Assembly (NCBI GenBank): GCA_019897865.1
Contig: GCA_019897865.1_4532.1
Direction: 5' to 3' (one strand)
From: a phage
DNA: 64,000 nt
How positions within the stretch are numbered: position 1 is the first letter of the stretch; each line of letters opens with the position of its first letter. The notes under the pieces were generated by a model that was not told the DNA's origin, did not search any database, and saw nothing but the letters and a program-made list of their open reading frames with translations. Both the position numbers and the translations under genes were made by a program. This document shows positions 1 through 9,670 of the stretch, piece after piece.

Positions 1-156
1 GAGAATAAAGCAGAATGGCATTACGAAATTGTTAAACTTCTTCGCAATCCGAACTATCGGGAAGATCGTGGCTTGTTCTTAGCGGAACATGTTCGAACAC
101 ATTATAATCTGGCAGATGCAAACGAATTGCGACGCCAGGTTATTGAAAGTTTGTAG
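1..156 (+). CDS. Partial CDS (3' end), paralog of the downstream glycosyltransferase-like protein
   Basis: Open frame to TAG at 154-156; C-terminus ...HVRTHYNLADANELRRQVIESL parallels the C-terminus of the next ORF (...YVRTHYHIDVLNERRRLLFEEL). Truncated by window edge. Confidence 0.35.
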   Translation, partial: ENKAEWHYEIVKLLRNPNYREDRGLFLAEHVRTHYNLADANELRRQVIESL

Positions 157-163
157 GTGAAGT

Positions 164-1108
164 ATGGGACAAATAATTCTTGACAATCGTAACGGAATCA
201 ATTATAGTGTCTGCGATTTCCATAGGGTAGTGCTGCCTTACTCAAGGCAGTTCTCTTCACAACCTAAACACAACGTTTTCGTTTTTAACGGAGTGCCAAC
301 AAAAGGTAAAGAGGGCTTTTTAGCCCTTAAAAACCTAGGCTTTAAAATGGTTATGGATTTGGATGACTCTTTAGTTATTCCAAAAGGACACATGTTAGAA
401 GGTATTTTTGAATCAGGTATTCGTGAACATTTAAAATGGTTTTTAGAGCACAGTGATCTTGTTACAACTACGACACCTGCCTTGCAAGTTGAACTTTCAC
501 AATACAATGATAATGTGCACATAATCCCTAATGGACTTCCTTACGATGAAGGTCAATTTGTGTTGACCCGTGACCGCTACTCCAAAACTCCATTAGTCTG
601 GGCTGGAAGTGAAACACATAAACAAGATTTGGCTATCTTGCCCGATTTTGGTAAAGATCTTACAATATGTGGTTTTCGTAGGGATTCTGAAGTTTTAAGT
701 AGTCGTGAATGGTCTGTAATTAGAGAAAATGTAGCACCAACTTGTGTTTATGAAGGTGTAAGACCATATGCCAACTACATGGAATCTTACGATGGTCATC
801 AAATCAGTCTTGCACCATTGATCGATAACGTGTTTAATAATGCAAAAAGCAATCTTAAAATTCTTGAGGCAGGTGCTAAGGGTTTACCTTTAATCTGCTC
901 TCCTCGTGAGAATTATCATACACAAGAGTTTAAAGATTTGTTATTCTTTGCTGAAACACCTTCCGAGTGGAAAGATATTACGGAATACTTATTAAGTGCT
1001 CCCGATGTTTGCATGGAGAAAGGATTAGCATTAGCTAAGTATGTCAGGACTCATTATCACATTGATGTGTTGAATGAGCGTCGTAGACTTTTATTTGAGG
1101 AGCTATAA
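164..1108 (+). CDS. Glycosyltransferase-like protein (GT-B fold, GT1/GT4-type C-terminal motif)
   Basis: 314 aa; C-terminal region ...SLAPLIDNVFNNAKSNLKILEAGAKGLPLICSP matches the classic GT-B motif (E-x7-E region, LEAxAxGxP). Recognised by eye, not by search. Confidence 0.5.
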   Translation: MGQIILDNRNGINYSVCDFHRVVLPYSRQFSSQPKHNVFVFNGVPTKGKEGFLALKNLGFKMVMDLDDSLVIPKGHMLEGIFESGIREHLKWFLEHSDLVTTTTPALQVELSQYNDNVHIIPNGLPYDEGQFVLTRDRYSKTPLVWAGSETHKQDLAILPDFGKDLTICGFRRDSEVLSSREWSVIRENVAPTCVYEGVRPYANYMESYDGHQISLAPLIDNVFNNAKSNLKILEAGAKGLPLICSPRENYHTQEFKDLLFFAETPSEWKDITEYLLSAPDVCMEKGLALAKYVRTHYHIDVLNERRRLLFEEL

Positions 1109-1386
1109 TGATTAACACTTTTGATTTTGAATACACCACTCGTAACGGGAAAGCCTTGGTCGTGGAGGTGGATTACTATTATGAAGAACCTAATCCACTT
1201 TCTCGTGAAAGCGATTGGGATTACCACGGAGGGCTTTTAATTGACGGTATTCGTTTTTATGAAGGATCTACAGAAGTTTTTGAAAAAGATTTAAATGTAA
1301 CTGTAGCAGAAATTGCTTTCCAATTTAGAAAGCACATGGAAGAACTAGAAGCAGAATATATGATGGAGACTAACGAACCATTTTAA
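1108..1386 (+). CDS. Hypothetical protein
   Basis: 92-aa ORF, start overlaps upstream stop (coupled). Confidence 0.45.
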   Translation: MINTFDFEYTTRNGKALVVEVDYYYEEPNPLSRESDWDYHGGLLIDGIRFYEGSTEVFEKDLNVTVAEIAFQFRKHMEELEAEYMMETNEPF

Positions 1387-1398
1387 CAGGAGAACAAA

Positions 1399-3177
1399 GT
1401 GTCGCACATTATAACTAAATATGGATTTGATGTTGATCTTAGCAAGGAAGGGCATACAGGTTGTCCGCGCTGCATGAAAAATGGCAAGGATCGCTCTCGT
1501 AATAACCTGATGGTTTATGGATTAGATTCTAATGGAGAGCATAAAGGTGCTAAGTGCTTTGCGTGTGAATACACTATTCCTAGCGTAGAATGGTTACGAG
1601 AAAATGGTGAAGTTTTAGAAGAAGAGGAGGAGATTGTGGGTTCGGAATTTAATAAACAGATTCATCGTAAAATTGTTCAAGAAACATCAACCAACCCACG
1701 TGGTTATCGAGGCATTAAAGAAAAAGTTTCATCTTTCTATGGTGTTCGTTATGAATACCGTCAGGAAGGGGATCAGATGGTAGTAGAAAGTTGTTTATAT
1801 CCGACTACCATCGGTAAAGAATTGGTTGGTTTTAAGCGTCGTATTCATCCTAAAGATTTCAGTAAACCTATTGGTCAAGTAGGTAAAGATGTAGATCTTT
1901 TTGGACAAATTCGTTTTGCAGACCGTTCTCATACTGTTGTAATTACAGGTGGTGAACACGATGCTCTGGCAGCTTATCAAATGCTATCTGAAAACTTGGA
2001 CAGTAAATATGAGCTTCCAGCCGTAGTAAGTGGCACAACTGGTGAAACCAGTATGTATAAACAAGTTCAGGCACAATATCCTTTCTTTGAAAAATTTAAG
2101 AAGATTATTGTTTGCATGGATAACGACAAAGCAGGTAATGAGGCATTTGAAAATATTGTTAAGGTGTTACCTCGTAACAAAGTCTACCGTATGCAGATGG
2201 ATCTTAAGGATGCCAATCAGTATCTGGAAGAAGGTCGTGCAAAAGATTTCGTAAAAGCTTTTTGGAGTGCTCGTCTATACACCCCAGCAGGTGTTTATGC
2301 TTCTAATGTCTTGTATGAAGCTGCATTGGAATGCTTGGAATCCAAGATGATTACCTTGCCTCCTTTTATGCGTGTTGCTGCAAATATGTTGGGGGGTGGT
2401 TTAGTAGAGGAAGAGATTACAGTCATCCTGGCAAAGACCAGTATCGGTAAAACTTTGATGGTGAACGAGATCACCAAACATATTATTGTTGCGCACCCAG
2501 AACATACCCTAGGTATTCTGTCCTTGGAAGCAACTTATAAGAAATATTCTCGTAACCTGTTGTCCTCGTTCCTGCATATTCCTCTACACAGGAAAACACC
2601 GGAAGAGAAATTTCAAATCTTGGAAGAGAATAAAGAAAAAATCCTAGATTTTTACGAAAGAGAAGATGGATCACCACGTTTTTATGTGTGTGATGATCGT
2701 GGAGCAGATGTGGAGTCTATCAAAGAAAAAGTTTTGGAGATGATCATCTATTTTGGAGTAACAATTCTTGTTATCGACCCTTATTCTGATTTGCTTTCTG
2801 GTATGGATGTTCAAGCCCAGGAAGAGTTAGCAACATGGTTGAAGCGCATCATGAAAGAGTATGCTATAACCATTATCGTCATCTCACACGTTAAGAAGTC
2901 GGCTAATGGTGGCAATGAACACTTAACAGAGGACGATGCAATGGGTAGTAGTTTCTTGGCTAAAGGTGCTGGTATTACCTTGGCTTTGGAACGAGATAAA
3001 GCCGCTGAAGACCCTGTAGAACGCAATACGACTCATTGCTTTATCCTAAAAAACCGTGAGTTCTCGGAAACTGGTCCGGCAGGGCAGTTTTACTATGACA
3101 TTAGAACTGCAACTCTGCATGACAAAGAGCAGTATTTCAACAATCCTGCTAATTTGCCTACGGATAGCAACTATTAA
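1399..3177 (+). CDS. Bifunctional DNA primase/helicase (T7 gp4-like)
   Basis: 592 aa, GTG start after AGGAG; N-terminal Cys4 zinc ribbon (CPRC...CFAC), TOPRIM-like acidic motifs (GGEHD, CMDNDKAGNEA), C-terminal DnaB/RecA-like P-loop (AKTSIGKT). Confidence 0.85.
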   Translation: MSHIITKYGFDVDLSKEGHTGCPRCMKNGKDRSRNNLMVYGLDSNGEHKGAKCFACEYTIPSVEWLRENGEVLEEEEEIVGSEFNKQIHRKIVQETSTNPRGYRGIKEKVSSFYGVRYEYRQEGDQMVVESCLYPTTIGKELVGFKRRIHPKDFSKPIGQVGKDVDLFGQIRFADRSHTVVITGGEHDALAAYQMLSENLDSKYELPAVVSGTTGETSMYKQVQAQYPFFEKFKKIIVCMDNDKAGNEAFENIVKVLPRNKVYRMQMDLKDANQYLEEGRAKDFVKAFWSARLYTPAGVYASNVLYEAALECLESKMITLPPFMRVAANMLGGGLVEEEITVILAKTSIGKTLMVNEITKHIIVAHPEHTLGILSLEATYKKYSRNLLSSFLHIPLHRKTPEEKFQILEENKEKILDFYEREDGSPRFYVCDDRGADVESIKEKVLEMIIYFGVTILVIDPYSDLLSGMDVQAQEELATWLKRIMKEYAITIIVISHVKKSANGGNEHLTEDDAMGSSFLAKGAGITLALERDKAAEDPVERNTTHCFILKNREFSETGPAGQFYYDIRTATLHDKEQYFNNPANLPTDSNY

Positions 3178-3196
3178 GGGCTTCGGCCCTTTTATT
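3177..3196 (+). terminator. Rho-independent terminator after primase-helicase
   Basis: AGGGC-TTCG-GCCCT hairpin followed by TTTTATT. Confidence 0.6.
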
Positions 3197-3207
3197 AAAA
3201 ATACCTG

Positions 3208-3236
3208 TTGACAACTTTACGGAAGGGACTTATACT
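3208..3236 (+). promoter_or_regulatory. Sigma70-like promoter
   Basis: TTGACA (3208-3213), 17-bp spacer, TATACT (3231-3236); AAGAGGAG RBS and ATG at 3270 downstream. Confidence 0.6.
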
Positions 3237-3269
3237 TGTCTCATCAACCAAACAAGAGGAGAAGTAAAA

Positions 3270-3701
3270 ATGCGTATGACAATCGATCTGAATGCAAAAG
3301 TTAAAGCTGCTGGTGCTCTGGGCGCTGGTGTTATTAAACACAAACAAGCGTTGGCATTTGCCATCCCACATATGATTGTTGAGGATCATCCTGAAGAGTT
3401 TGCTGTAAAAGTTGTTGAGAACAATGTCTCTGTTATTGAACATCTTCCAACTGGACGTTCTTACCGTGTTGTTTCTTCTAGAGGTTTCCGTTTCGATGTA
3501 AGCCCTTCTTTCACAAAAGGTGCTGGTCGTAGTAAAGTGGGTATTCTTTCTTACAAATATTATATCGATAAAGTTGCAGATGGTGTCGCATTCTGTCGTG
3601 TAAGTGAAGGTAAAGTAGATATCATCTTTAAAAATACCAAAAACATGGTTATTTCTGACGATGGGAAAGTTGACCTCACTATTGAGTTCGCTAACAACTA
3701 A
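3270..3701 (+). CDS. Hypothetical protein
   Basis: 143-aa ORF with strong promoter and RBS; no recognisable motif. Confidence 0.6.
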   Translation: MRMTIDLNAKVKAAGALGAGVIKHKQALAFAIPHMIVEDHPEEFAVKVVENNVSVIEHLPTGRSYRVVSSRGFRFDVSPSFTKGAGRSKVGILSYKYYIDKVADGVAFCRVSEGKVDIIFKNTKNMVISDDGKVDLTIEFANN

Positions 3702-3710
3702 GGAGGACTA

Positions 3711-4505
3711 TTGAGCAAGTTGAATACACTTGATCAATATTACACTAACCCCGCTTATGCGGGGTTCTTATGTGATAAGATCAAAGAAATTTTTGGAGAG
3801 GAAGCTAACTACGTAGAACCATCTGCGGGAGAAGGAGCTTTCTCTTCTTGTTTTAAAAACATAACTTCTTTTGATATTGACCCTAAGTTTGAAGATTGTA
3901 TTGAGGCAGATTTTTTAGCTCAATCTGTTGAGTCTGTTGGCAGTGTAACTGCTTTTGTCGGTAATCCTCCGTTTGGAAAAAATGCTAGTCTTGCCATTAA
4001 GTTCTTTAACCATTGTGCTGAAATGTTGGATAACGAAGGTGGTATTTGTTTTATCTTGCCTCGCACATTTCAAAAAATCTTTTTTGCACACAAACTAAAT
4101 CCCCACATGCATCTTCTTTACGAAGAAGAATGTCCAAAAGGATCTTTTATTCTTCATGGAGAACCTTGGGATGTTCCTTGTGTATTCCAGATATGGATTA
4201 AACGCAACGAGAAGCGTTCTCCCGTTGTTTTAGGAGAGAATCGACTGTTCGTATTAGGTAACAGTAAAGACTACGATATAGCCGTTAGGAGAGCGGGAGC
4301 AAGTGCAGGTAAAGTGTTATCAGAAGAAGATTCTTTATCTGAAGCATCTACCTATTTTTTAAAAGCCTTGACTTCTGATCTTAAAACGCGTATCATTGAG
4401 GCTTACCCGTTACTTAAAGCTGAAGCTAGTAAAACTGCGGGAGTAAGAAGTTTAAGTTTAAAAGAACTTCAGTGGGTTCTGGAGAACATTAGAAAGGAGG
4501 AATAG
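3711..4505 (+). CDS. DNA methyltransferase (N6-adenine/N4-cytosine class, orphan)
   Basis: 264 aa, TTG start; DQYYTNP near N-terminus, SAM-binding EPSAGEGAF (motif I), catalytic NPPF (motif IV). No adjacent restriction endonuclease seen. Confidence 0.7.
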   Translation: MSKLNTLDQYYTNPAYAGFLCDKIKEIFGEEANYVEPSAGEGAFSSCFKNITSFDIDPKFEDCIEADFLAQSVESVGSVTAFVGNPPFGKNASLAIKFFNHCAEMLDNEGGICFILPRTFQKIFFAHKLNPHMHLLYEEECPKGSFILHGEPWDVPCVFQIWIKRNEKRSPVVLGENRLFVLGNSKDYDIAVRRAGASAGKVLSEEDSLSEASTYFLKALTSDLKTRIIEAYPLLKAEASKTAGVRSLSLKELQWVLENIRKEE

Positions 4506-7102
4506 TGAGTAAGTTTACATGGGATATTGAAGCAAACGGATTGTTGAATAATGACACTATTGATTATTTAGCTAGTCCTTATCGTCTCAAAGACACATTT
4601 CAAATGCACTGTATTGTCTTAGAGAACCATGAAACAGGAGAAATAGTAGCTTTCCACGATGGCCCTAAATACATCTTTGATGGGCGTCCTTATGAAGAGT
4701 CAGATGGTAAATACACATATGTTCTTAAAGAGTATGTGGCGCAAGATTACACGCATTTTCAACTAAAAGATTTCCCAGACTTTATTAATCATGAAGGTTA
4801 TTTTAAAGACAAGCCTGAATATCTGGTTGAAATGGCTGTGGCTCACAACGGTATCAACTACGACTGGTTGGCTACAAAACTGTTTTATGGATTAGATTAC
4901 AGTGTTAAATATAATACGTGGGGCAAAAATAAGGTAAAACTTATTGACTCCTTGATTTTGAGTAAAGTGTTAAACCCAGATCGAAAGATTGAGGGCAAAT
5001 CAGGACATAGCTTGGCAGCACTTTCTCGAAAAGCAGGTGGTGATGTAAAAATAGATTTCCGTAAAGAGATTCCAGAAGAAGATCGATTTAAGACTTTTGC
5101 TGCGGATATGCTTTATTACTGTATCTATGACAACAAAGCCAATACGAGCGTATATAACTACCTTATGGAAGAATGGGGCGATTATGATAAATGGGAAGGT
5201 CCATTTGAACTTGAACAACGTGTAGCAGACATTATCACACGCCAAGAACACCGTGGGTTTGCTTTTAACATGAAGCAAGCAGAAGAGAACCTTGCTTTTT
5301 TGGATGCAGAAATGGAGCGTCTTCGTTTACTCGTTGAGCCTATTTTGCCACCTAAACCAGCAACAAAAGGCTATCTTAAGGCTTTTATTCCACCTAAGTT
5401 GCAAATTAAAAAGAACTTAGAGCCAACTAACCATATGATCAATTTTGCTAAGAAACATGATGGTCATTTGGAAGAGAGGGATGGCGATTGGTGGTTAGTT
5501 ATGTTGGGGAAAGAGTGGAAACTGCCAGTTGCAGCAGATGAACCTCTATGTGATCCTAACATCCCTGCAACATTGAACGATACAACCCATATTAAAAACT
5601 GGCTTGTAGGATTAGGTTGGGTACCGTCTGAATATAAAGATAAAGACTTGACCCTTAAATCTGGAACCAAGATTAAAAAGAGCGAGGAAGAACTTCAGAA
5701 AGGTATTCGAGCTTACGTTGAGCAAACTCTATCTTCTAATTTTTGTCAGGATCGTTGTGATCATCTGGAGTGCACACCGGAAACCTTGGAAAGGAAGATT
5801 CAAGAGCGTATAGCAAAAGGTAAAGGTCGCGGTCTTAAAGTATTGACTAACCCATGTTTTACCAAAGGTCAGGAAAAAGAAATTTGTCCTAACCTGCAAG
5901 CTTTGGGTGAGAAATTTCCTTATGCTACACAGATTGTAGAATACTTAACGTATAAACACCGTAGGAACTCTATTTTAGGTGGTGGTGCCGATTGGGAAGA
6001 AGACGAAGAAGATCAAGAATACGATAAAGGTTTCTTAGCCGCAGTAAGGGCGGATGGTCGTATTCCTACCCCAGCCGCTACATGTGATGCTGCAACCTCT
6101 CGTATGAAGCATAGATCTGTAGCTAATATTCCTCGTGTCACATCTTTGTTTGGATGGGAGATGCGTAACTTGTTTGGTGTGGAGGTTCCTAAATACTTCC
6201 AGATTGGTTATGACTTCGACTCTTTGGAAGCAAAGATTGAGTCACATTATTGTTGGCGCTACGAACCGGAGCCTCATGAATACTGTAACGCTCTCTTGTT
6301 AGAGAAGCCTAACGATGTTCATACCATGATGGCAAAACGTATTACAGACACTATTGGACGTAAGTTTGAACGTAGTCCAGCGAAATCTGTTAAATACGGG
6401 ATCACTTATGGTGCACAAGCAGACAAGGTTGCTAAAACAATTGGTAGCGATAAGTTTACAGGTCAGTTAGTGTTCGATGCTTTCTGGGAAGCTGCATTCC
6501 CACTGGCACGTCTTAAAGAACGTTTAAACGATTTCTGGGTTAAGACTGGTAAACAGTATGTTTTGGGTATTGACGGTCGTAAGGTTCCTACTCGTTCTGC
6601 TCACGCGATTCTTAACTCTCTGTTCCAAAGTGGTGGGGTTATCTGTGCTAAACGTGCAATGGTTATTTATGACGATATGATCGAAGAAGAAGGACTAAGT
6701 GTTGACTTCTTTAAAGATGACTGGAAGAATAAAGACTTCGTGCAACAAATGATTGCATACCACGATGAAGCCCAGCTTGAAGTTTCTCGTAACCTTGTAG
6801 AATTCAAATGGTTTTCACCTGAATCGTTAGGTTGGAAGAAAGTAGACGATCCTGAAGAACAAAAGAAAATTGATAAAGAATGCCTTGCTAAAGTTGAAGA
6901 ATGGAAGCATAATAAGGAAAAAGAGACGGGACAAATTTGGGCTAATATTCATGAATCTCCCAAAGGTGGATGGTTTACAGCCTATAGTCGGGCAGGTGAA
7001 CTTGCTGCCTTAGCTGTTACTAAGGCTGGAGAATTTTACAATCTTAATGTTCAGCTTACTGCCGGATATGACGTGGGTAATTCCTGGGCATCCTGTCATT
7101 GA
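4505..7102 (+). CDS. DNA polymerase, family A (T7 Pol-like) with 3'-5' exonuclease domain
   Basis: 865 aa; Exo I DIEANGL; polymerase motif A DFDSLEAKIESHY, motif B RSPAKSVKYGITYGAQ, motif C HDEAQLEV. Confidence 0.85.
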   Translation: MSKFTWDIEANGLLNNDTIDYLASPYRLKDTFQMHCIVLENHETGEIVAFHDGPKYIFDGRPYEESDGKYTYVLKEYVAQDYTHFQLKDFPDFINHEGYFKDKPEYLVEMAVAHNGINYDWLATKLFYGLDYSVKYNTWGKNKVKLIDSLILSKVLNPDRKIEGKSGHSLAALSRKAGGDVKIDFRKEIPEEDRFKTFAADMLYYCIYDNKANTSVYNYLMEEWGDYDKWEGPFELEQRVADIITRQEHRGFAFNMKQAEENLAFLDAEMERLRLLVEPILPPKPATKGYLKAFIPPKLQIKKNLEPTNHMINFAKKHDGHLEERDGDWWLVMLGKEWKLPVAADEPLCDPNIPATLNDTTHIKNWLVGLGWVPSEYKDKDLTLKSGTKIKKSEEELQKGIRAYVEQTLSSNFCQDRCDHLECTPETLERKIQERIAKGKGRGLKVLTNPCFTKGQEKEICPNLQALGEKFPYATQIVEYLTYKHRRNSILGGGADWEEDEEDQEYDKGFLAAVRADGRIPTPAATCDAATSRMKHRSVANIPRVTSLFGWEMRNLFGVEVPKYFQIGYDFDSLEAKIESHYCWRYEPEPHEYCNALLLEKPNDVHTMMAKRITDTIGRKFERSPAKSVKYGITYGAQADKVAKTIGSDKFTGQLVFDAFWEAAFPLARLKERLNDFWVKTGKQYVLGIDGRKVPTRSAHAILNSLFQSGGVICAKRAMVIYDDMIEEEGLSVDFFKDDWKNKDFVQQMIAYHDEAQLEVSRNLVEFKWFSPESLGWKKVDDPEEQKKIDKECLAKVEEWKHNKEKETGQIWANIHESPKGGWFTAYSRAGELAALAVTKAGEFYNLNVQLTAGYDVGNSWASCH

Positions 7103-7120
7103 TCTAACATGTTGTTTTAT

Positions 7121-7140
7121 AAGGGGCTTCTGCCCCTTTA
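7121..7140 (+). terminator. Terminator-like hairpin after DNA polymerase
   Basis: AAGGGGC-TTCT-GCCCCTT hairpin then T-rich TTTAT. Confidence 0.5.
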
Positions 7141-7151
7141 TAGGAGAAGAT

Positions 7152-7343
7152 ATGAGTTACGATTTAGATTATTTTGGTATGCCTTACCTACCAGATGAAT
7201 TTGAAGGTGAAGAAGAATGTGAATGGGACGATGGAGATATCCGTTGTTGGTCTTGTGGTAAAGATATGTCCTATGAACAACATATGCACAATGATGGTTT
7301 CTGCATACATTGTTATAATGAAATTGATCTGGAGGAAGATTAA
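7152..7343 (+). CDS. Small acidic zinc-ribbon protein
   Basis: In-frame ATG at 7152 preceded by GGAG; 63 aa with CWSC...CIHC. The track ORF from 7047 is probably an over-extension across the terminator. Confidence 0.5.
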   Translation: MSYDLDYFGMPYLPDEFEGEEECEWDDGDIRCWSCGKDMSYEQHMHNDGFCIHCYNEIDLEED

Positions 7344-7510
7344 TGGGAAATGGTATCATGATTTGCTATAAAATTGTGCGTATTGTCGGAGACGAAATTA
7401 CCACTCGGTATTTTATGATAGAGTCTCAAGCCGATGAGGTTTACAATGACTGGCTTGAAAAAGGTGGATACGATTTTGTATCTAAAGAAACTTTCCGTTT
7501 AGAGGTATAA
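7343..7510 (+). CDS. Small hypothetical protein (55 aa)
   Basis: ATG overlaps upstream stop (TAATG), GGAGG 7 nt upstream; below the ORF-track size cutoff. Confidence 0.4.
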   Translation: MGNGIMICYKIVRIVGDEITTRYFMIESQADEVYNDWLEKGGYDFVSKETFRLEV

Positions 7511-7520
7511 GGAGAAAACA

Positions 7521-7739
7521 ATGCGTAAACTAGTGAGCTTTAATGTTTCAATTCTTATTGATGAACAAAATGAAGATGTTATTAAAGGTCTTGCAAATAA
7601 GATTGCAGGTGGAATGACGGAAGCTGAAGTGTGGGAAGAATGTGCTCGACTTTATGAGGAAGGTGTTATTGAGGTCTTGGGGGATGAGATTAATATGGAC
7701 GATGTTGTAAAAGTAACTGTGGAGCGTATCAATGACTAA
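7521..7739 (+). CDS. Hypothetical protein
   Basis: 72-aa ORF with AAGGAGAA RBS. Confidence 0.5.
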   Translation: MRKLVSFNVSILIDEQNEDVIKGLANKIAGGMTEAEVWEECARLYEEGVIEVLGDEINMDDVVKVTVERIND

Positions 7740-8328
7740 ATCAAAACAAATCAATATTGCCAAAGAAATTCTTACCGTATTAAAGATCGCTGATCCTAAT
7801 TCTGTCTTGGCTGGCGGTGCTGTTCGTGATTGGCGTATTCTTGATATTGCTGGACGTGATCTGGATTTTTACACGTCTCTTCCTGCACATCGATCAGAAG
7901 AGCAAATACAAGACTTGATTGCATCTGCTTTGATGGGAACTAATATTCGTAAACTAGGAAACAAAGAGGCTTCTGATAACTACGAGGGTGTTACTGGTCT
8001 TAAACACGTTTTTGAATTTGAACGTGATGGTCAGCTTTGCAACCTTATGATTATGGACCCAAATGTAATGACAACCTTTCTGAATGAGTTTGATCTGTCC
8101 ATCTGCCAGGCTGCATTTGATGGAAAGGATTGTTATTACTCTAAAGATTTTGAAACAACTTTGGAAACAGGGATCTGCTTCTTGCACAAAGATGTTAGAG
8201 AAGATGCCAAACATGTTATTAAAATCGCTACGCGTTTCCCATATCTTCGCTTTGTTAAAGAGGTTAAGGTTCCACGTCCACCTCAAGTAGATACCAAATC
8301 GGAAGAAGAAGATGATATTCCTTGGTAA
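7732..8328 (+). CDS. Nucleotidyltransferase, CCA-adding/poly(A) polymerase head-domain type, with SSB-like acidic C-terminal tail
   Basis: 198 aa; LAGGAVRDWRILDIAGRDLDFY matches the GGxVRD...DxD signature of class II tRNA nucleotidyltransferases; C-terminus ...SEEEDDIPW resembles the SSB C-terminal tip. Confidence 0.5.
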   Translation: MTKSKQINIAKEILTVLKIADPNSVLAGGAVRDWRILDIAGRDLDFYTSLPAHRSEEQIQDLIASALMGTNIRKLGNKEASDNYEGVTGLKHVFEFERDGQLCNLMIMDPNVMTTFLNEFDLSICQAAFDGKDCYYSKDFETTLETGICFLHKDVREDAKHVIKIATRFPYLRFVKEVKVPRPPQVDTKSEEEDDIPW

Positions 8329-8782: not shown

Positions 8783-9670
8783 ATGTCCGTAATTAATACT
8801 GAAACTGATCGTAAAGGCAAAACCGTAACTTATGCAACTGGTATCGTAGACTACGTTAAACTGGATAAATTCGCTGAACCTAAAACTTTTCATTGGGAAG
8901 GAAAAACGATTGTTTCAACTCACCGAGCCTCTCTTGTTCTGAAAGAGAAAGGTGCTAAACCAGATGAGAAAGGTGTTTGGATTTCTCTTGGTGACATTGA
9001 ACTGAAAGAAGGTTATGAAAACCTGCAAGTCAAAGAAGGTGATAATTGGATCACTATTGAAAAAGGTGTAGAAGTAAGTATTGATATTGATCGCGTTGAT
9101 AATAAAGGCGGTAAAACTTACTACAATACTAAAAAATCTCGTATTACAGTATTGTCTACCGATGGTGTTCAGAAGTCTAACAAATCTTCTGGCAATAAAG
9201 GTTCCAACGATGCTGCTCCTAAGCAGTCCTATAAAAAACGTGATACTGTAGGTCTGGAAACTGGTCACGCAGTAAATGGTGCACTGGAACTGATTCGTAA
9301 TGGTGTTAAAGGCGATGCTTTCGATATCGCTGGGGTTGTTCAATCTGCAACTGTCACGCTGAAATCTGAAATTGCTGAATCTCGTGGCGTTGATATTAAT
9401 GATTATGATCTTGGGGCATCTGTTGGTCACGCTATTCTCAATGCTTGTAAAGACCATACCATTAAGACTGTCTCTGTAGAAGATCTGATTGAGTCTGCTC
9501 GTAAAGTTCTGGCTCTGTCTGATAAAGTTGCTGCTGCCATTCGTGGTTCCGCAGAACAGCCTAAGAAAGAAGAGAAGAAAGAAGTTAAGAAACCTGAACC
9601 ACAACCAGAACCAACTCCAAGTAATCAAGAAGAACCTCCAATGGACTTCGACGATGATATTCCATTCTGA
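8783..9670 (+). CDS. ssb: Single-stranded DNA-binding protein
   Basis: 295 aa ending ...MDFDDDIPF, identical in form to the bacterial SSB C-terminal protein-interaction tip, preceded by a Pro/Glu-rich linker. Confidence 0.7.
   Translation: MSVINTETDRKGKTVTYATGIVDYVKLDKFAEPKTFHWEGKTIVSTHRASLVLKEKGAKPDEKGVWISLGDIELKEGYENLQVKEGDNWITIEKGVEVSIDIDRVDNKGGKTYYNTKKSRITVLSTDGVQKSNKSSGNKGSNDAAPKQSYKKRDTVGLETGHAVNGALELIRNGVKGDAFDIAGVVQSATVTLKSEIAESRGVDINDYDLGASVGHAILNACKDHTIKTVSVEDLIESARKVLALSDKVAAAIRGSAEQPKKEEKKEVKKPEPQPEPTPSNQEEPPMDFDDDIPF

Follow-up and report, generated by a model that had tools for sequence, protein, structure and literature searches.

Glycosyltransferase and adenine methyltransferase genes in the replication block of a Phapecoctavirus genome: probably two accessory modules rather than one DNA hypermodification system

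The first 4,505 positions of a 64,000-nucleotide stretch of phage DNA (contig GCA_019897865.1_4532.1 of GenBank assembly GCA_019897865.1; the whole stretch is hereafter the window) place two glycosyltransferase genes, GT-a and GT-b, and a gene for an N6-adenine methyltransferase among genes for DNA replication. This arrangement raises the question of whether these enzymes work together on the phage DNA. A first-pass annotation of the sequence had proposed that they do, the DNA being glycosylated and methylated for the evasion of restriction. Our best reading is a different one: the replication block probably holds two accessory modules, one of which would glycosylate an acceptor other than DNA, while the other probably methylates DNA adenine. 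By sequence, the window phage is assigned to the genus Phapecoctavirus (Stephanstirmvirinae), virulent E. coli myophages of about 150 kb. Over positions 1-8000 the identity was 98.7% to Escherichia phage ESCO13 and 98% to phAPEC8, and 68 phage records spanned at least 80% of this part. ESCO13 served as the coordinate-matched reference, with window position x corresponding to x + 12000 of the ESCO13 stretch L001.

The two kinds of gene were found to be phylogenetically uncoupled. When the complete genome of the Justusliebigvirus Bas61 (EmilieFrey) was searched with profiles, both GT-B-type glycosyltransferase paralogs were recovered (E 1e-148 and 6e-133). The same genome gave no ortholog of the methyltransferase, which is of the EDM2 type, and no homolog of its 143-residue neighbour, the product of open reading frame (ORF) ORF143; the sole match, of 15 bits, was apparently an unrelated methyltransferase-like protein of 169 amino acids (aa). 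At the syntenic spot between primase-helicase and polymerase, Bas61 carries an unrelated 131-aa ORF. Homologs of the methyltransferase were 97-99.6% identical in Phapecoctavirus and about 54% identical in Vequintavirus such as rV5, with none in the 60-95% band, and the rV5-like phages were absent among the glycosyltransferase matches. A tblastn search with GT-b returned Phapecoctavirus (95-100%, mostly at least 99%), Justusliebigvirus (about 76%), Citrobacter phage Tr1 and a few Klebsiella phages, and did not return Vequintavirus. Since Bas61 has the glycosyltransferases without the methyltransferase and the rV5-like phages have the methyltransferase without the glycosyltransferases, the two are probably independent accessory modules and not one system.

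At the locus itself, every element of the first-pass description was present where it had been placed, and far beyond chance. Two adjacent GT-B-type genes are present, the first cut by the window edge and the two alike in their C-termini; they are followed by primase-helicase, and the methyltransferase gene lies between primase-helicase and the DNA polymerase gene polA, so that the position inside the replication block holds. The coupling of the methyltransferase to the polymerase was also seen, since its TAG stop (4503-4505) overlaps the GTG start of polA (4505-4507) by one base, the ribosome-binding site of polA lying inside the methyltransferase 3' end. The features of the block are as follows.

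1-156, plus strand: 3' end of GT-a, 51 codons and a stop in frame 1 (ENKAEWHYEIV...RRQVIESL), equivalent to the C-terminus of ESCO13 gp232
164-1108, plus strand: GT-b, glycosyltransferase of 314 aa (PHROG 7162, PF13524, GT-B fold model)
1108-1386, plus strand: acidic protein of 92 aa, isoelectric point (pI) 4.2 (PHROG 4240, unknown function); its start overlaps the GT-b stop (TAATG)
1399-3177, plus strand: primase-helicase with Toprim and DnaB-like C-terminal domains (PF13155, PF03796; PHROG 239, E 1.7e-164)
3208-3236, plus strand: match to a sigma-70-like promoter, TTGACA-17-TATACT, 11 of 12 positions (a consensus match alone)
3270-3701, plus strand: ORF143, basic protein of 143 aa, pI 9.2 (homology to rV5 gp097 and to ORFs of contigs L022 and L023)
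3711-4505, plus strand: gamma-class N6-adenine methyltransferase of the Mtase_EDM2 type, 264 aa, TTG start (motifs, alignment, fold)
4505-7102, plus strand: family A DNA polymerase (PolA), GTG start (PF00476, PHROG 17)

The tandem of glycosyltransferase genes is real as a pair, but it is only the last part of a longer row. In ESCO13 and Bas61, four consecutive genes are annotated as glycosyltransferases, and GT-a and GT-b are the last two of these. The cassette begins with a protein of 187 aa that has an RDTD motif (PHROG 14179), continues with gp231 (PHROG 2456), a GT-A-like protein of 227 aa that has an FDDD motif, and ends with GT-a and GT-b; its first two members, both small GT-A-like proteins with DxD motifs, are encoded just upstream of the window. 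GT-b and full-length GT-a were 42% identical over 303 aa (E 2e-78), C-termini included. In ESCO5 a coding sequence is annotated at 1-156. The 92-aa ORF behind GT-b, which is translationally coupled to it, may also belong to the cassette; a 63% identical homolog lies at the same place in Bas61, and an 86-aa ORF does so in L022. A complete rmlABCD-like pathway for dTDP-L-rhamnose is encoded about 70 kb from the cassette, as gp085-088 in ESCO13 (L002 33046-36324, just past the far end of the window) and at 16028-19289 of L028 in Bas61. According to the literature, phage ESCO37 lacks the first two rml genes (rmlA and rmlB) and retains the glycosyltransferases; because of this, the rml pathway is regarded as accessory. 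Upstream of the cassette on the same strand stands a set of genes of the tellurite-resistance type (ESCO13 L001 244-8639; Bas61 L027 6875-9090), namely Macro, TerC, SprT-like, TelA, vWA-TerF and TerD, with a phosphoribosyltransferase and a HAD protein in addition in Bas61. This set resembles the Ter-linked 'nucleoside-like metabolite' module of Anantharaman, Iyer and Aravind.

Do the glycosyltransferases decorate the bases of phage DNA, perhaps with rhamnose made through the rml pathway, and shield it against restriction together with adenine methylation? The siting of the genes agrees with this idea, since the neighbours of the cassette are genes for primase-helicase and polymerase, an arrangement also known for b-gt and gene 42 in the T-even DNA glucosylation system of T4 (gp42 with alpha- and beta-glucosyltransferases). 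The T4 beta-glucosyltransferase (BGT) has a GT-B fold as well. Moreover, rhamnosylation of hydroxymethylated nucleotides had been raised as a possibility for these phages by Olsen et al. However, a base-modifying hydroxymethylase, which the first-pass annotation had proposed to look for upstream of the window, did not come to light. A profile hidden Markov model of hydroxymethylases was made from E. coli ThyA, T4 gp42, two annotated hydroxymethylases, the ThyA homolog of Okubovirus Adastra and the Xp12 enzyme, and was run against all six-frame ORFs of at least 60 aa in the window and the rest of ESCO13 (817 ORFs) and against the complete Bas61 genome. No ThyA-type hydroxymethylase was found in ESCO13 with the window (best E 0.9) or in Bas61 (best E 0.41), these matches being noise. 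The ThyA query alone picked up hydroxymethylases at 24-28% identity across the phage collection. A canonical flavin-dependent ThyX is encoded, 53% identical to that of rV5. A TET/JBP dioxygenase could be another source of hydroxymethyl bases, but no dioxygenase was annotated in ESCO13 or in the hand-curated Bas61 record, a dedicated profile search not having been made.

GT-b itself was also unlike the T4 DNA glucosyltransferases. T4 BGT showed no similarity to the genome in a phmmer search (best E 2.6; the T4 alpha-glucosyltransferase was not searched by sequence), and neither the top 50 Protein Data Bank (PDB) matches of GT-b nor the named rows of its top 50 viral matches, where several rows were nameless, included a recognisable T-even DNA glucosyltransferase. 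T4 BGT has a pI of 9.05, against 5.7 for GT-b and 4.9 for gp231. On the other hand, gp231 gave weak matches of 36-40 residues to PF20691 (TET-associated glycosyltransferase, TAGT; E 1e-3, 19.2 bits where the cut-off is 27.5) and to PHROG 842 (E 5e-6), the T-even beta-glucosyl-hydroxymethylcytosine alpha-glucosyltransferase; they were confined to the generic nucleotide-sugar/DxD region.

The published restriction data speak against decorated DNA in this group of phages. Maffei et al. described Vequintavirinae and phi92-like phages as 'exceptionally susceptible' to restriction-modification 'despite a putative dTDP glycosylation machinery', and Bas61, which belongs to the phi92-like group Bas60-62, carries all four glycosyltransferases and rmlABCD. 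Druantia III and ARMADA II target Bas61 and Bas62, and the authors suggest that both systems recognise unmodified DNA. HincII restricted the whole phage collection with the exception of three T-even phages, and the collection included isolates of Phapecoctavirus (ESCO5, ESCO13, ESCO37) and Justusliebigvirus. The mobility of the cassette, described below, would be compatible with a generic acceptor such as DNA; however, its core pair also occurs in lambdoid temperate phages, in contigs that have no nucleotide-modification genes near it. With no ThyA-family hydroxymethylase, a GT4-like fold, DNA cut by HincII, a restriction-sensitive sister group and two uncoupled modules, the proposal that glycosylation and methylation of DNA jointly serve restriction evasion was not upheld, and we regard it as very unlikely.

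What kind of enzyme GT-b is could be narrowed down by its family and its predicted structure. GT-b matched PHROG 7162 'glycosyltransferase' with E 1.9e-145. Its match to PF13524 (Glyco_trans_1_2, CgeB-like) was borderline, 25.2 bits at a cut-off of 25, and most GT-b homologs carry a precomputed PF13524 tag. The AlphaFold2 model (predicted local distance difference test, pLDDT, 93.6; predicted template modelling score 0.91) has the GT-B fold, that is, two Rossmann-like domains and an interdomain cleft. When the model was compared with the PDB by Foldseek, 249 matches had E of at most 1e-3, and the best 50 were all GT-B enzymes. The best structures were PglA, GlgM, BshA, MshA, GtfC/Gtf3, PimA, TarM and SdgB (E 3e-9 to 1e-7, TM about 0.6, about 300 residues). 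These GT4 enzymes have the two-Rossmann GT-B fold in common with GT-b, which differs from them in being shorter (314 aa), in having a sequence identity to any solved enzyme of just 11-17% and in belonging to a family restricted to phages and prophages. PDB sequence searches gave nothing significant for GT-b, the methyltransferase, gp230 or gp231. Among the named viral structures, the nearest to GT-b were group-1, RfaG and CgeB-like glycosyltransferases of uncultured phages, cyanophages and giant viruses.

Within the GT-b family, the C-terminal KSNLKILEAGAKG nucleotide-sugar-binding region is conserved. E235 of GT-b (in LKILEAGAKG) is nearly invariant, and the position 8 residues upstream is K or S, as compared with the two glutamates of the GT4 nucleotide-sugar motif E-x7-E; this stretch is a putative counterpart of that motif. 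Transmembrane helices were absent from all four glycosyltransferases and from the product of the 92-aa ORF (the maximal 19-residue Kyte-Doolittle mean was at most 1.65, in charged beta-strand segments). GT-b is therefore described as a soluble, acidic glycosyltransferase of GT-B fold and GT4/CgeB-like type, its catalysis being predicted from the model.

The distribution of the cassette bears on its acceptor. The GT-B family is tiny, with 35 clusters in 5.8 billion proteins, and every context examined was a phage or prophage. A pair consisting of a gp231-like GT-A gene and a GT-a-type GT-B gene (40-51% identity) co-occurs in three temperate-phage settings. In the Serratia sp. M24T3 prophage the pair lies between lysis genes and terminase, with a homolog of the 187-aa protein there too; in lambdoid contigs it lies between the Q antiterminator/HicAB region and holin/lysozyme; and in a P22/Sf6-like contig it lies between terminase and portal. 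HK97-like temperate phages are also among the carriers of the core pair in late/structural regions. By these comparisons, the gp231-like and GT-a-like core pair appears to be a mobile module that the window phage shares with temperate enterobacterial phages. Since GT-a is closer than GT-b to the temperate-phage homologs, GT-b is a lineage-specific duplicate and GT-a the ancestral-type GT-B member.

We propose that the soluble, cytoplasmic glycosyltransferases of the cassette would add sugars stepwise from nucleotide sugars and so build a short glycan on a non-DNA acceptor, and that the donors may include dTDP-L-rhamnose from the phage's own rmlABCD. As a single best guess, and a tentative one, this acceptor would be a phage virion protein that is modified late in infection. 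The guess was made because of the late/structural position in the three temperate settings, the CgeB-like family and the rml pathway of the phage. Virion glycosylation is known for the capsid and tail of mycobacteriophages and for the fibrils of giant viruses, and CgeB acts with sps/rml genes in the Bacillus spore crust; the CgeB and giant-virus analogies stand behind the guess. The likeness to such systems consists of virus-encoded soluble glycosyltransferases combined with a virus-encoded pathway for a deoxy-sugar nucleotide, of the CgeB-like enzymes of giant viruses and cyanophages among the structural neighbours of GT-b, and of the late/structural cassette in temperate relatives. The differences are that none of the virion proteins of these phages has been reported as glycosylated and that the rml genes are about 70 kb away and partly missing in ESCO37. 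A virion protein as the acceptor would make this the first such glycosylation system to be described from an enterobacterial phage, and the sugar donor may be phage-made dTDP-rhamnose.

An intermediate of the host envelope is nearly as likely an acceptor as a virion protein, which agrees with the reservation of the first-pass annotation that the glycosyltransferases might modify cell-surface glycans. Here the soluble glycosyltransferases, at the cytoplasmic face, would alter lipid-linked intermediates of the lipopolysaccharide (LPS) core, the O-unit or an exopolysaccharide and thereby change the receptor, so that superinfecting phages are excluded or the loss of progeny on cell debris is reduced. 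The GT4 neighbours of GT-b have lipid-linked sugars, small molecules, proteins or teichoic acid as their substrates, and PglA, PimA and TarM among them work on lipid-linked or wall polymers. TarP, a soluble prophage-encoded glycosyltransferase of S. aureus, is a precedent. The cassette moves between unrelated virion types that have enterobacterial hosts in common. The receptors of these phages are, according to the literature, surface glycans and LPS outer-core glucose, and the authors of the ZCKP1 paper proposed a modification of surface polysaccharide that impedes superinfection. However, the cassette of the temperate phages lies in late/structural operons and not by the integrase/immunity genes, where conversion genes usually lie. 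The Gtr systems of O-antigen glucosylation (GtrABC/GtrABS) are comparable insofar as phage-borne glycosyltransferases of enterobacterial phages alter surface glycans and adsorption, but they need a flippase and integral-membrane transferases, whereas the window proteins are of other families, have no transmembrane segment and no flippase or membrane Gtr-type partner, and lie outside a lysogeny module. In a lytic cycle, moreover, presumably only newly made envelope molecules would be altered. A small molecule or a host protein may also be the acceptor of the cassette. A less likely option is DNA glycosylated by a hydroxymethylase-free chemistry, too sparsely to block EcoRI, EcoRV or HincII.

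The second module is built around the methyltransferase. Its gene has a TTG start preceded by an AGGAGG ribosome-binding site, and the product carries the N6-adenine methyltransferase motifs that had been pointed out before, DQYYTNP (residues 8-14), EPSAGEGAF (36-44) and NPPF (85-88), which were invariant or nearly so in 43 homologs. In the alignment of the 43 sequences, E36, P37, A39, G40, G42, N85, P86, P87 and G89 were invariant and F44 and F88 nearly invariant. The family motif set is DQYYTNP, EPSAGxGxF and GNPPFG, with the S-adenosylmethionine-binding motif I before the catalytic motif IV. Some of the 2465 homologs retrieved bear a PF26055 (Mtase_EDM2) tag. Precomputed matches to this family were seen for homologs at 38-53% identity; local Pfam scans of the window protein and five homologs returned none. 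The weak Pfam/NCBIfam matches of the enzyme were to the Eco57I and Alw26I families of DNA methyltransferases. We take DQYYTNP to resemble the (G)Q(F/Y)(F/Y)TP motif of HsdM/Eco57I-type DNA enzymes. The model (pLDDT 93.6) consists of a Rossmann catalytic domain and a C-terminal domain of about 100 aa, and the best Foldseek structures were M.BseCI, CamA, HsdM and M.TaqI (catalytic domain E about 1e-7, query-normalised TM 0.42-0.56). The motif order of these gamma-class DNA methyltransferases, (D/G)Q(Y/F)(Y/F)T, EPxxGxGxF and NPPF, is the same. The window enzyme differs from them (380-580 aa) in its length of 264 aa, in a C-terminal domain that does not match target-recognition domains and in having ORF143 as a partner.

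The first-pass annotation had called the methyltransferase an orphan. This was right in that no endonuclease-like ORF is adjacent: the neighbours are primase-helicase, ORF143 and PolA, and the minus-strand ORFs in 1-4505 are short and embedded in genes. In this respect it is like CamA, and the cognate endonuclease of a Type II restriction-modification system is missing from the locus. Four distant homologs (40-43% identity) on cellular or unclassified contigs had neither an ORF143-like neighbour nor a conserved endonuclease; a Poseidonibacter homolog lies in a defence-like island and adjoins a type I methyltransferase/specificity gene pair. The enzyme is not strictly solitary, however, because it has the conserved neighbour ORF143 (3270-3701). 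Taking these results together, we consider it likely that the enzyme works as an orphan adenine methyltransferase on phage DNA during replication, possibly helped by ORF143 in DNA binding or specificity.

ORF143 was followed through the homologs of the methyltransferase. Its homolog in rV5, gp097 (E 2e-13), overlaps the 3' end of the rV5 methyltransferase gene; a 141-aa homolog overlaps the methyltransferase start in the more distant Stephanstirm-like contig L022; and a 136-aa homolog abuts a methyltransferase homolog in the unrelated phage contig L023, beside nrdD/nrdG. The adjacency was seen in four phage lineages, the gene order being inverted once (in rV5). No ORF143 homologs were found beside the distant bacterial methyltransferase homologs. 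An exhaustive HMMER search of 1.8 billion proteins gave 17 representatives with E of at most 1e-3, about 13 of them true; matches to the long proteins P0162 and P0171, which are Ig-like repeat proteins, were treated as spurious. In the alignment of 13 members, P33, P79, S80, K83, G84 and R87 were invariant, and there was no invariant D, E or H. Since the family has no invariant acidic or histidine residue, ORF143 is not a conventional nuclease; the idea that it is the missing restriction endonuclease was rejected on this ground and for want of a Pfam/NCBIfam match. It was also considered as a substrate of glutamine methylation of the HemK kind, because of 'GQ' at residue 26, and this was rejected since three members have S or T in place of Q26. 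The 'Dam-like' methyltransferase of Bas61 with its 143-aa neighbour was considered as an equivalent pair and rejected, the proteins not being homologous. ORF143 and the EDM2-type enzyme may together form a two-component adenine methyltransferase.

Further genes of this kind were noticed in the relatives. Methyltransferase-like genes are ESCO13 gp060 and gp077 (L002 22032-22715 and 29126-29635) and two in Bas61 (L026 35999-36730 and L028 5966-6955). The kinds include a PHROG 757 enzyme, a 169-aa gamma-class protein that consists of the catalytic domain only, and Dam-like and Dcm-like enzymes in Bas61; Sir2-like genes are found too. A paralogy of ESCO13 gp077 with the window methyltransferase was rejected, since the similarity is at motif level only (E 0.027). 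These phages may have several independent methylation functions.

In the mechanism that we propose for the second module, ORF143 and the methyltransferase are probably transcribed from the promoter at 3208-3236, the methyltransferase gene being translationally coupled to that of PolA. The enzyme would methylate adenine at a particular motif of phage DNA that has just been replicated, and ORF143 would assist in DNA binding or in specificity. The outcome would be motif-specific protection or self-marking only, not a general resistance to restriction. Any protection must be motif-specific because rV5-like phages with a homolog of the methyltransferase are restriction-sensitive. A bolder combined view, which we think less likely than not, is that the gp231-like and GT-a-like pair, represented by four genes here, is a mobile phage-specific system with a phage component as its acceptor, and that it stands beside a two-component ORF143/EDM2 methyltransferase.

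Several observations weigh against the reading as two modules with a non-DNA and a DNA target. Restriction sensitivity was recorded in Justusliebigvirus, the sister genus, and in Vequintavirus rather than in a Phapecoctavirus, and the short gp231 matches leave a faint sequence link to DNA glycosyltransferases. The movement of the cassette across myo-, sipho- and podovirus genomes fits a generic acceptor (a host glycan or DNA) better than a specific virion protein, and in Stephanstirmvirinae the cassette lies with replication genes and not with late genes. In the searchable literature no experiment on these proteins was found, nor were direct data on DNA modification in Stephanstirmvirinae or on Vequintavirus methylomes; a broad search on virion glycosylation gave eukaryotic-virus papers only, and a search on EDM2 a domain description only. 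What the analysis shows is the identity of the genes, their folds, motifs, synteny and phylogenetic distribution, and that a hydroxymethylase is absent; since there is no such experiment in that literature, all substrates and biological roles are inferred. For the methyltransferase, the RNA methyltransferases TrmN, Trm5 and KsgA were just about ten-fold worse in the fold search, so that the preference for DNA is modest. The enzyme is itself acidic (pI 5.3), and some cellular homologs have translation-related neighbours and bear the JGI name 'predicted RNA methylase'.

These last points would suit an enzyme that acts on RNA (tRNA or rRNA of phage or host) or on protein, not on DNA. RNA and protein glutamine are also substrates of methyltransferases with (N/D)PP(F/Y). 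Genes for tRNAs and for a tRNA nucleotidyltransferase-like protein are present in the phage, and one cellular homolog (P0056, 40% identical, on metagenome contigs L010/L011) has PTH2 on one side and NusG/KOW genes on the other, restriction genes being absent from its surroundings. Some members of the Mtase_EDM2 family may have a housekeeping role, possibly on RNA. Nevertheless, the best structural matches are all DNA adenine methyltransferases, the weak family matches are to DNA enzymes, the gene is embedded between primase-helicase and DNA polymerase, the Poseidonibacter homolog adjoins a type I pair, and the glutamine-methylation substrate fails for lack of a conserved Q26. A target in RNA or protein was therefore judged unlikely, and a DNA adenine target is preferred.

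The genes are ordinary in themselves: glycosyltransferases and a putative N6-adenine methyltransferase are the annotations that they already bear in the records of phAPEC8 and of about 65 near-identical phages. Likewise, the idea of glycosylated DNA (Olsen et al.) and the restriction sensitivity of the sister genus (Maffei et al.) are published. What is new is modest, namely the mobile core pair, the genome without a hydroxymethylase, the uncoupling of cassette and methyltransferase and the conserved basic partner ORF143. Since these broad-host-range phages are used in cocktails for therapy and biocontrol, a DNA that is probably not hypermodified helps to predict their sensitivity to host restriction. 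Two small questions are raised, which are what the four-gene cassette glycosylates, given the rml pathway of the phage, and what ORF143 does.

The genes of the block follow closely on one another and overlap by 1 nt at 1108 and 4505, apart from a 92-bp gap between primase-helicase and ORF143. None of its proteins had a family in an NCBIfam scan. The promoter match at 3208-3236 sits in this sole sizeable gap, upstream of ORF143, the methyltransferase and PolA. In the promoter and terminator scan of the region the total counts were not above the shuffle expectation, and only this intergenic match of 11 of 12 positions was noteworthy. With such a match in the only sizeable gap of the block, ORF143, the methyltransferase and PolA may make up a single transcription unit.

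Some minor observations were made on the neighbourhood. In ESCO5, AV125, ZCKP1 and other relatives, the polA gene is 735 bp longer and in frame (1110 against 865 aa; L025 4505-7837). The extra segment, which the window phage lacks, looks intein-like or like another in-frame insertion. A nucleotidyltransferase-like protein (7732-8328) and an SSB-like protein (8783-9670) end in acidic tails, ...EEEDDIPW and ...DFDDDIPF, respectively. Both the DIPW and the DIPF tail resemble the C-terminal tip of bacterial SSB (single-stranded DNA-binding protein), which suggests docking partners in common. Lastly, proteins of records named 'Campylobacter phage' with the host label C. jejuni (MG065635, MG065647, MG065656, MG065674 and others) were 54-76% identical to those of the window phage; since these records match Vequintavirus and Justusliebigvirus in genome size, the host label looks doubtful.

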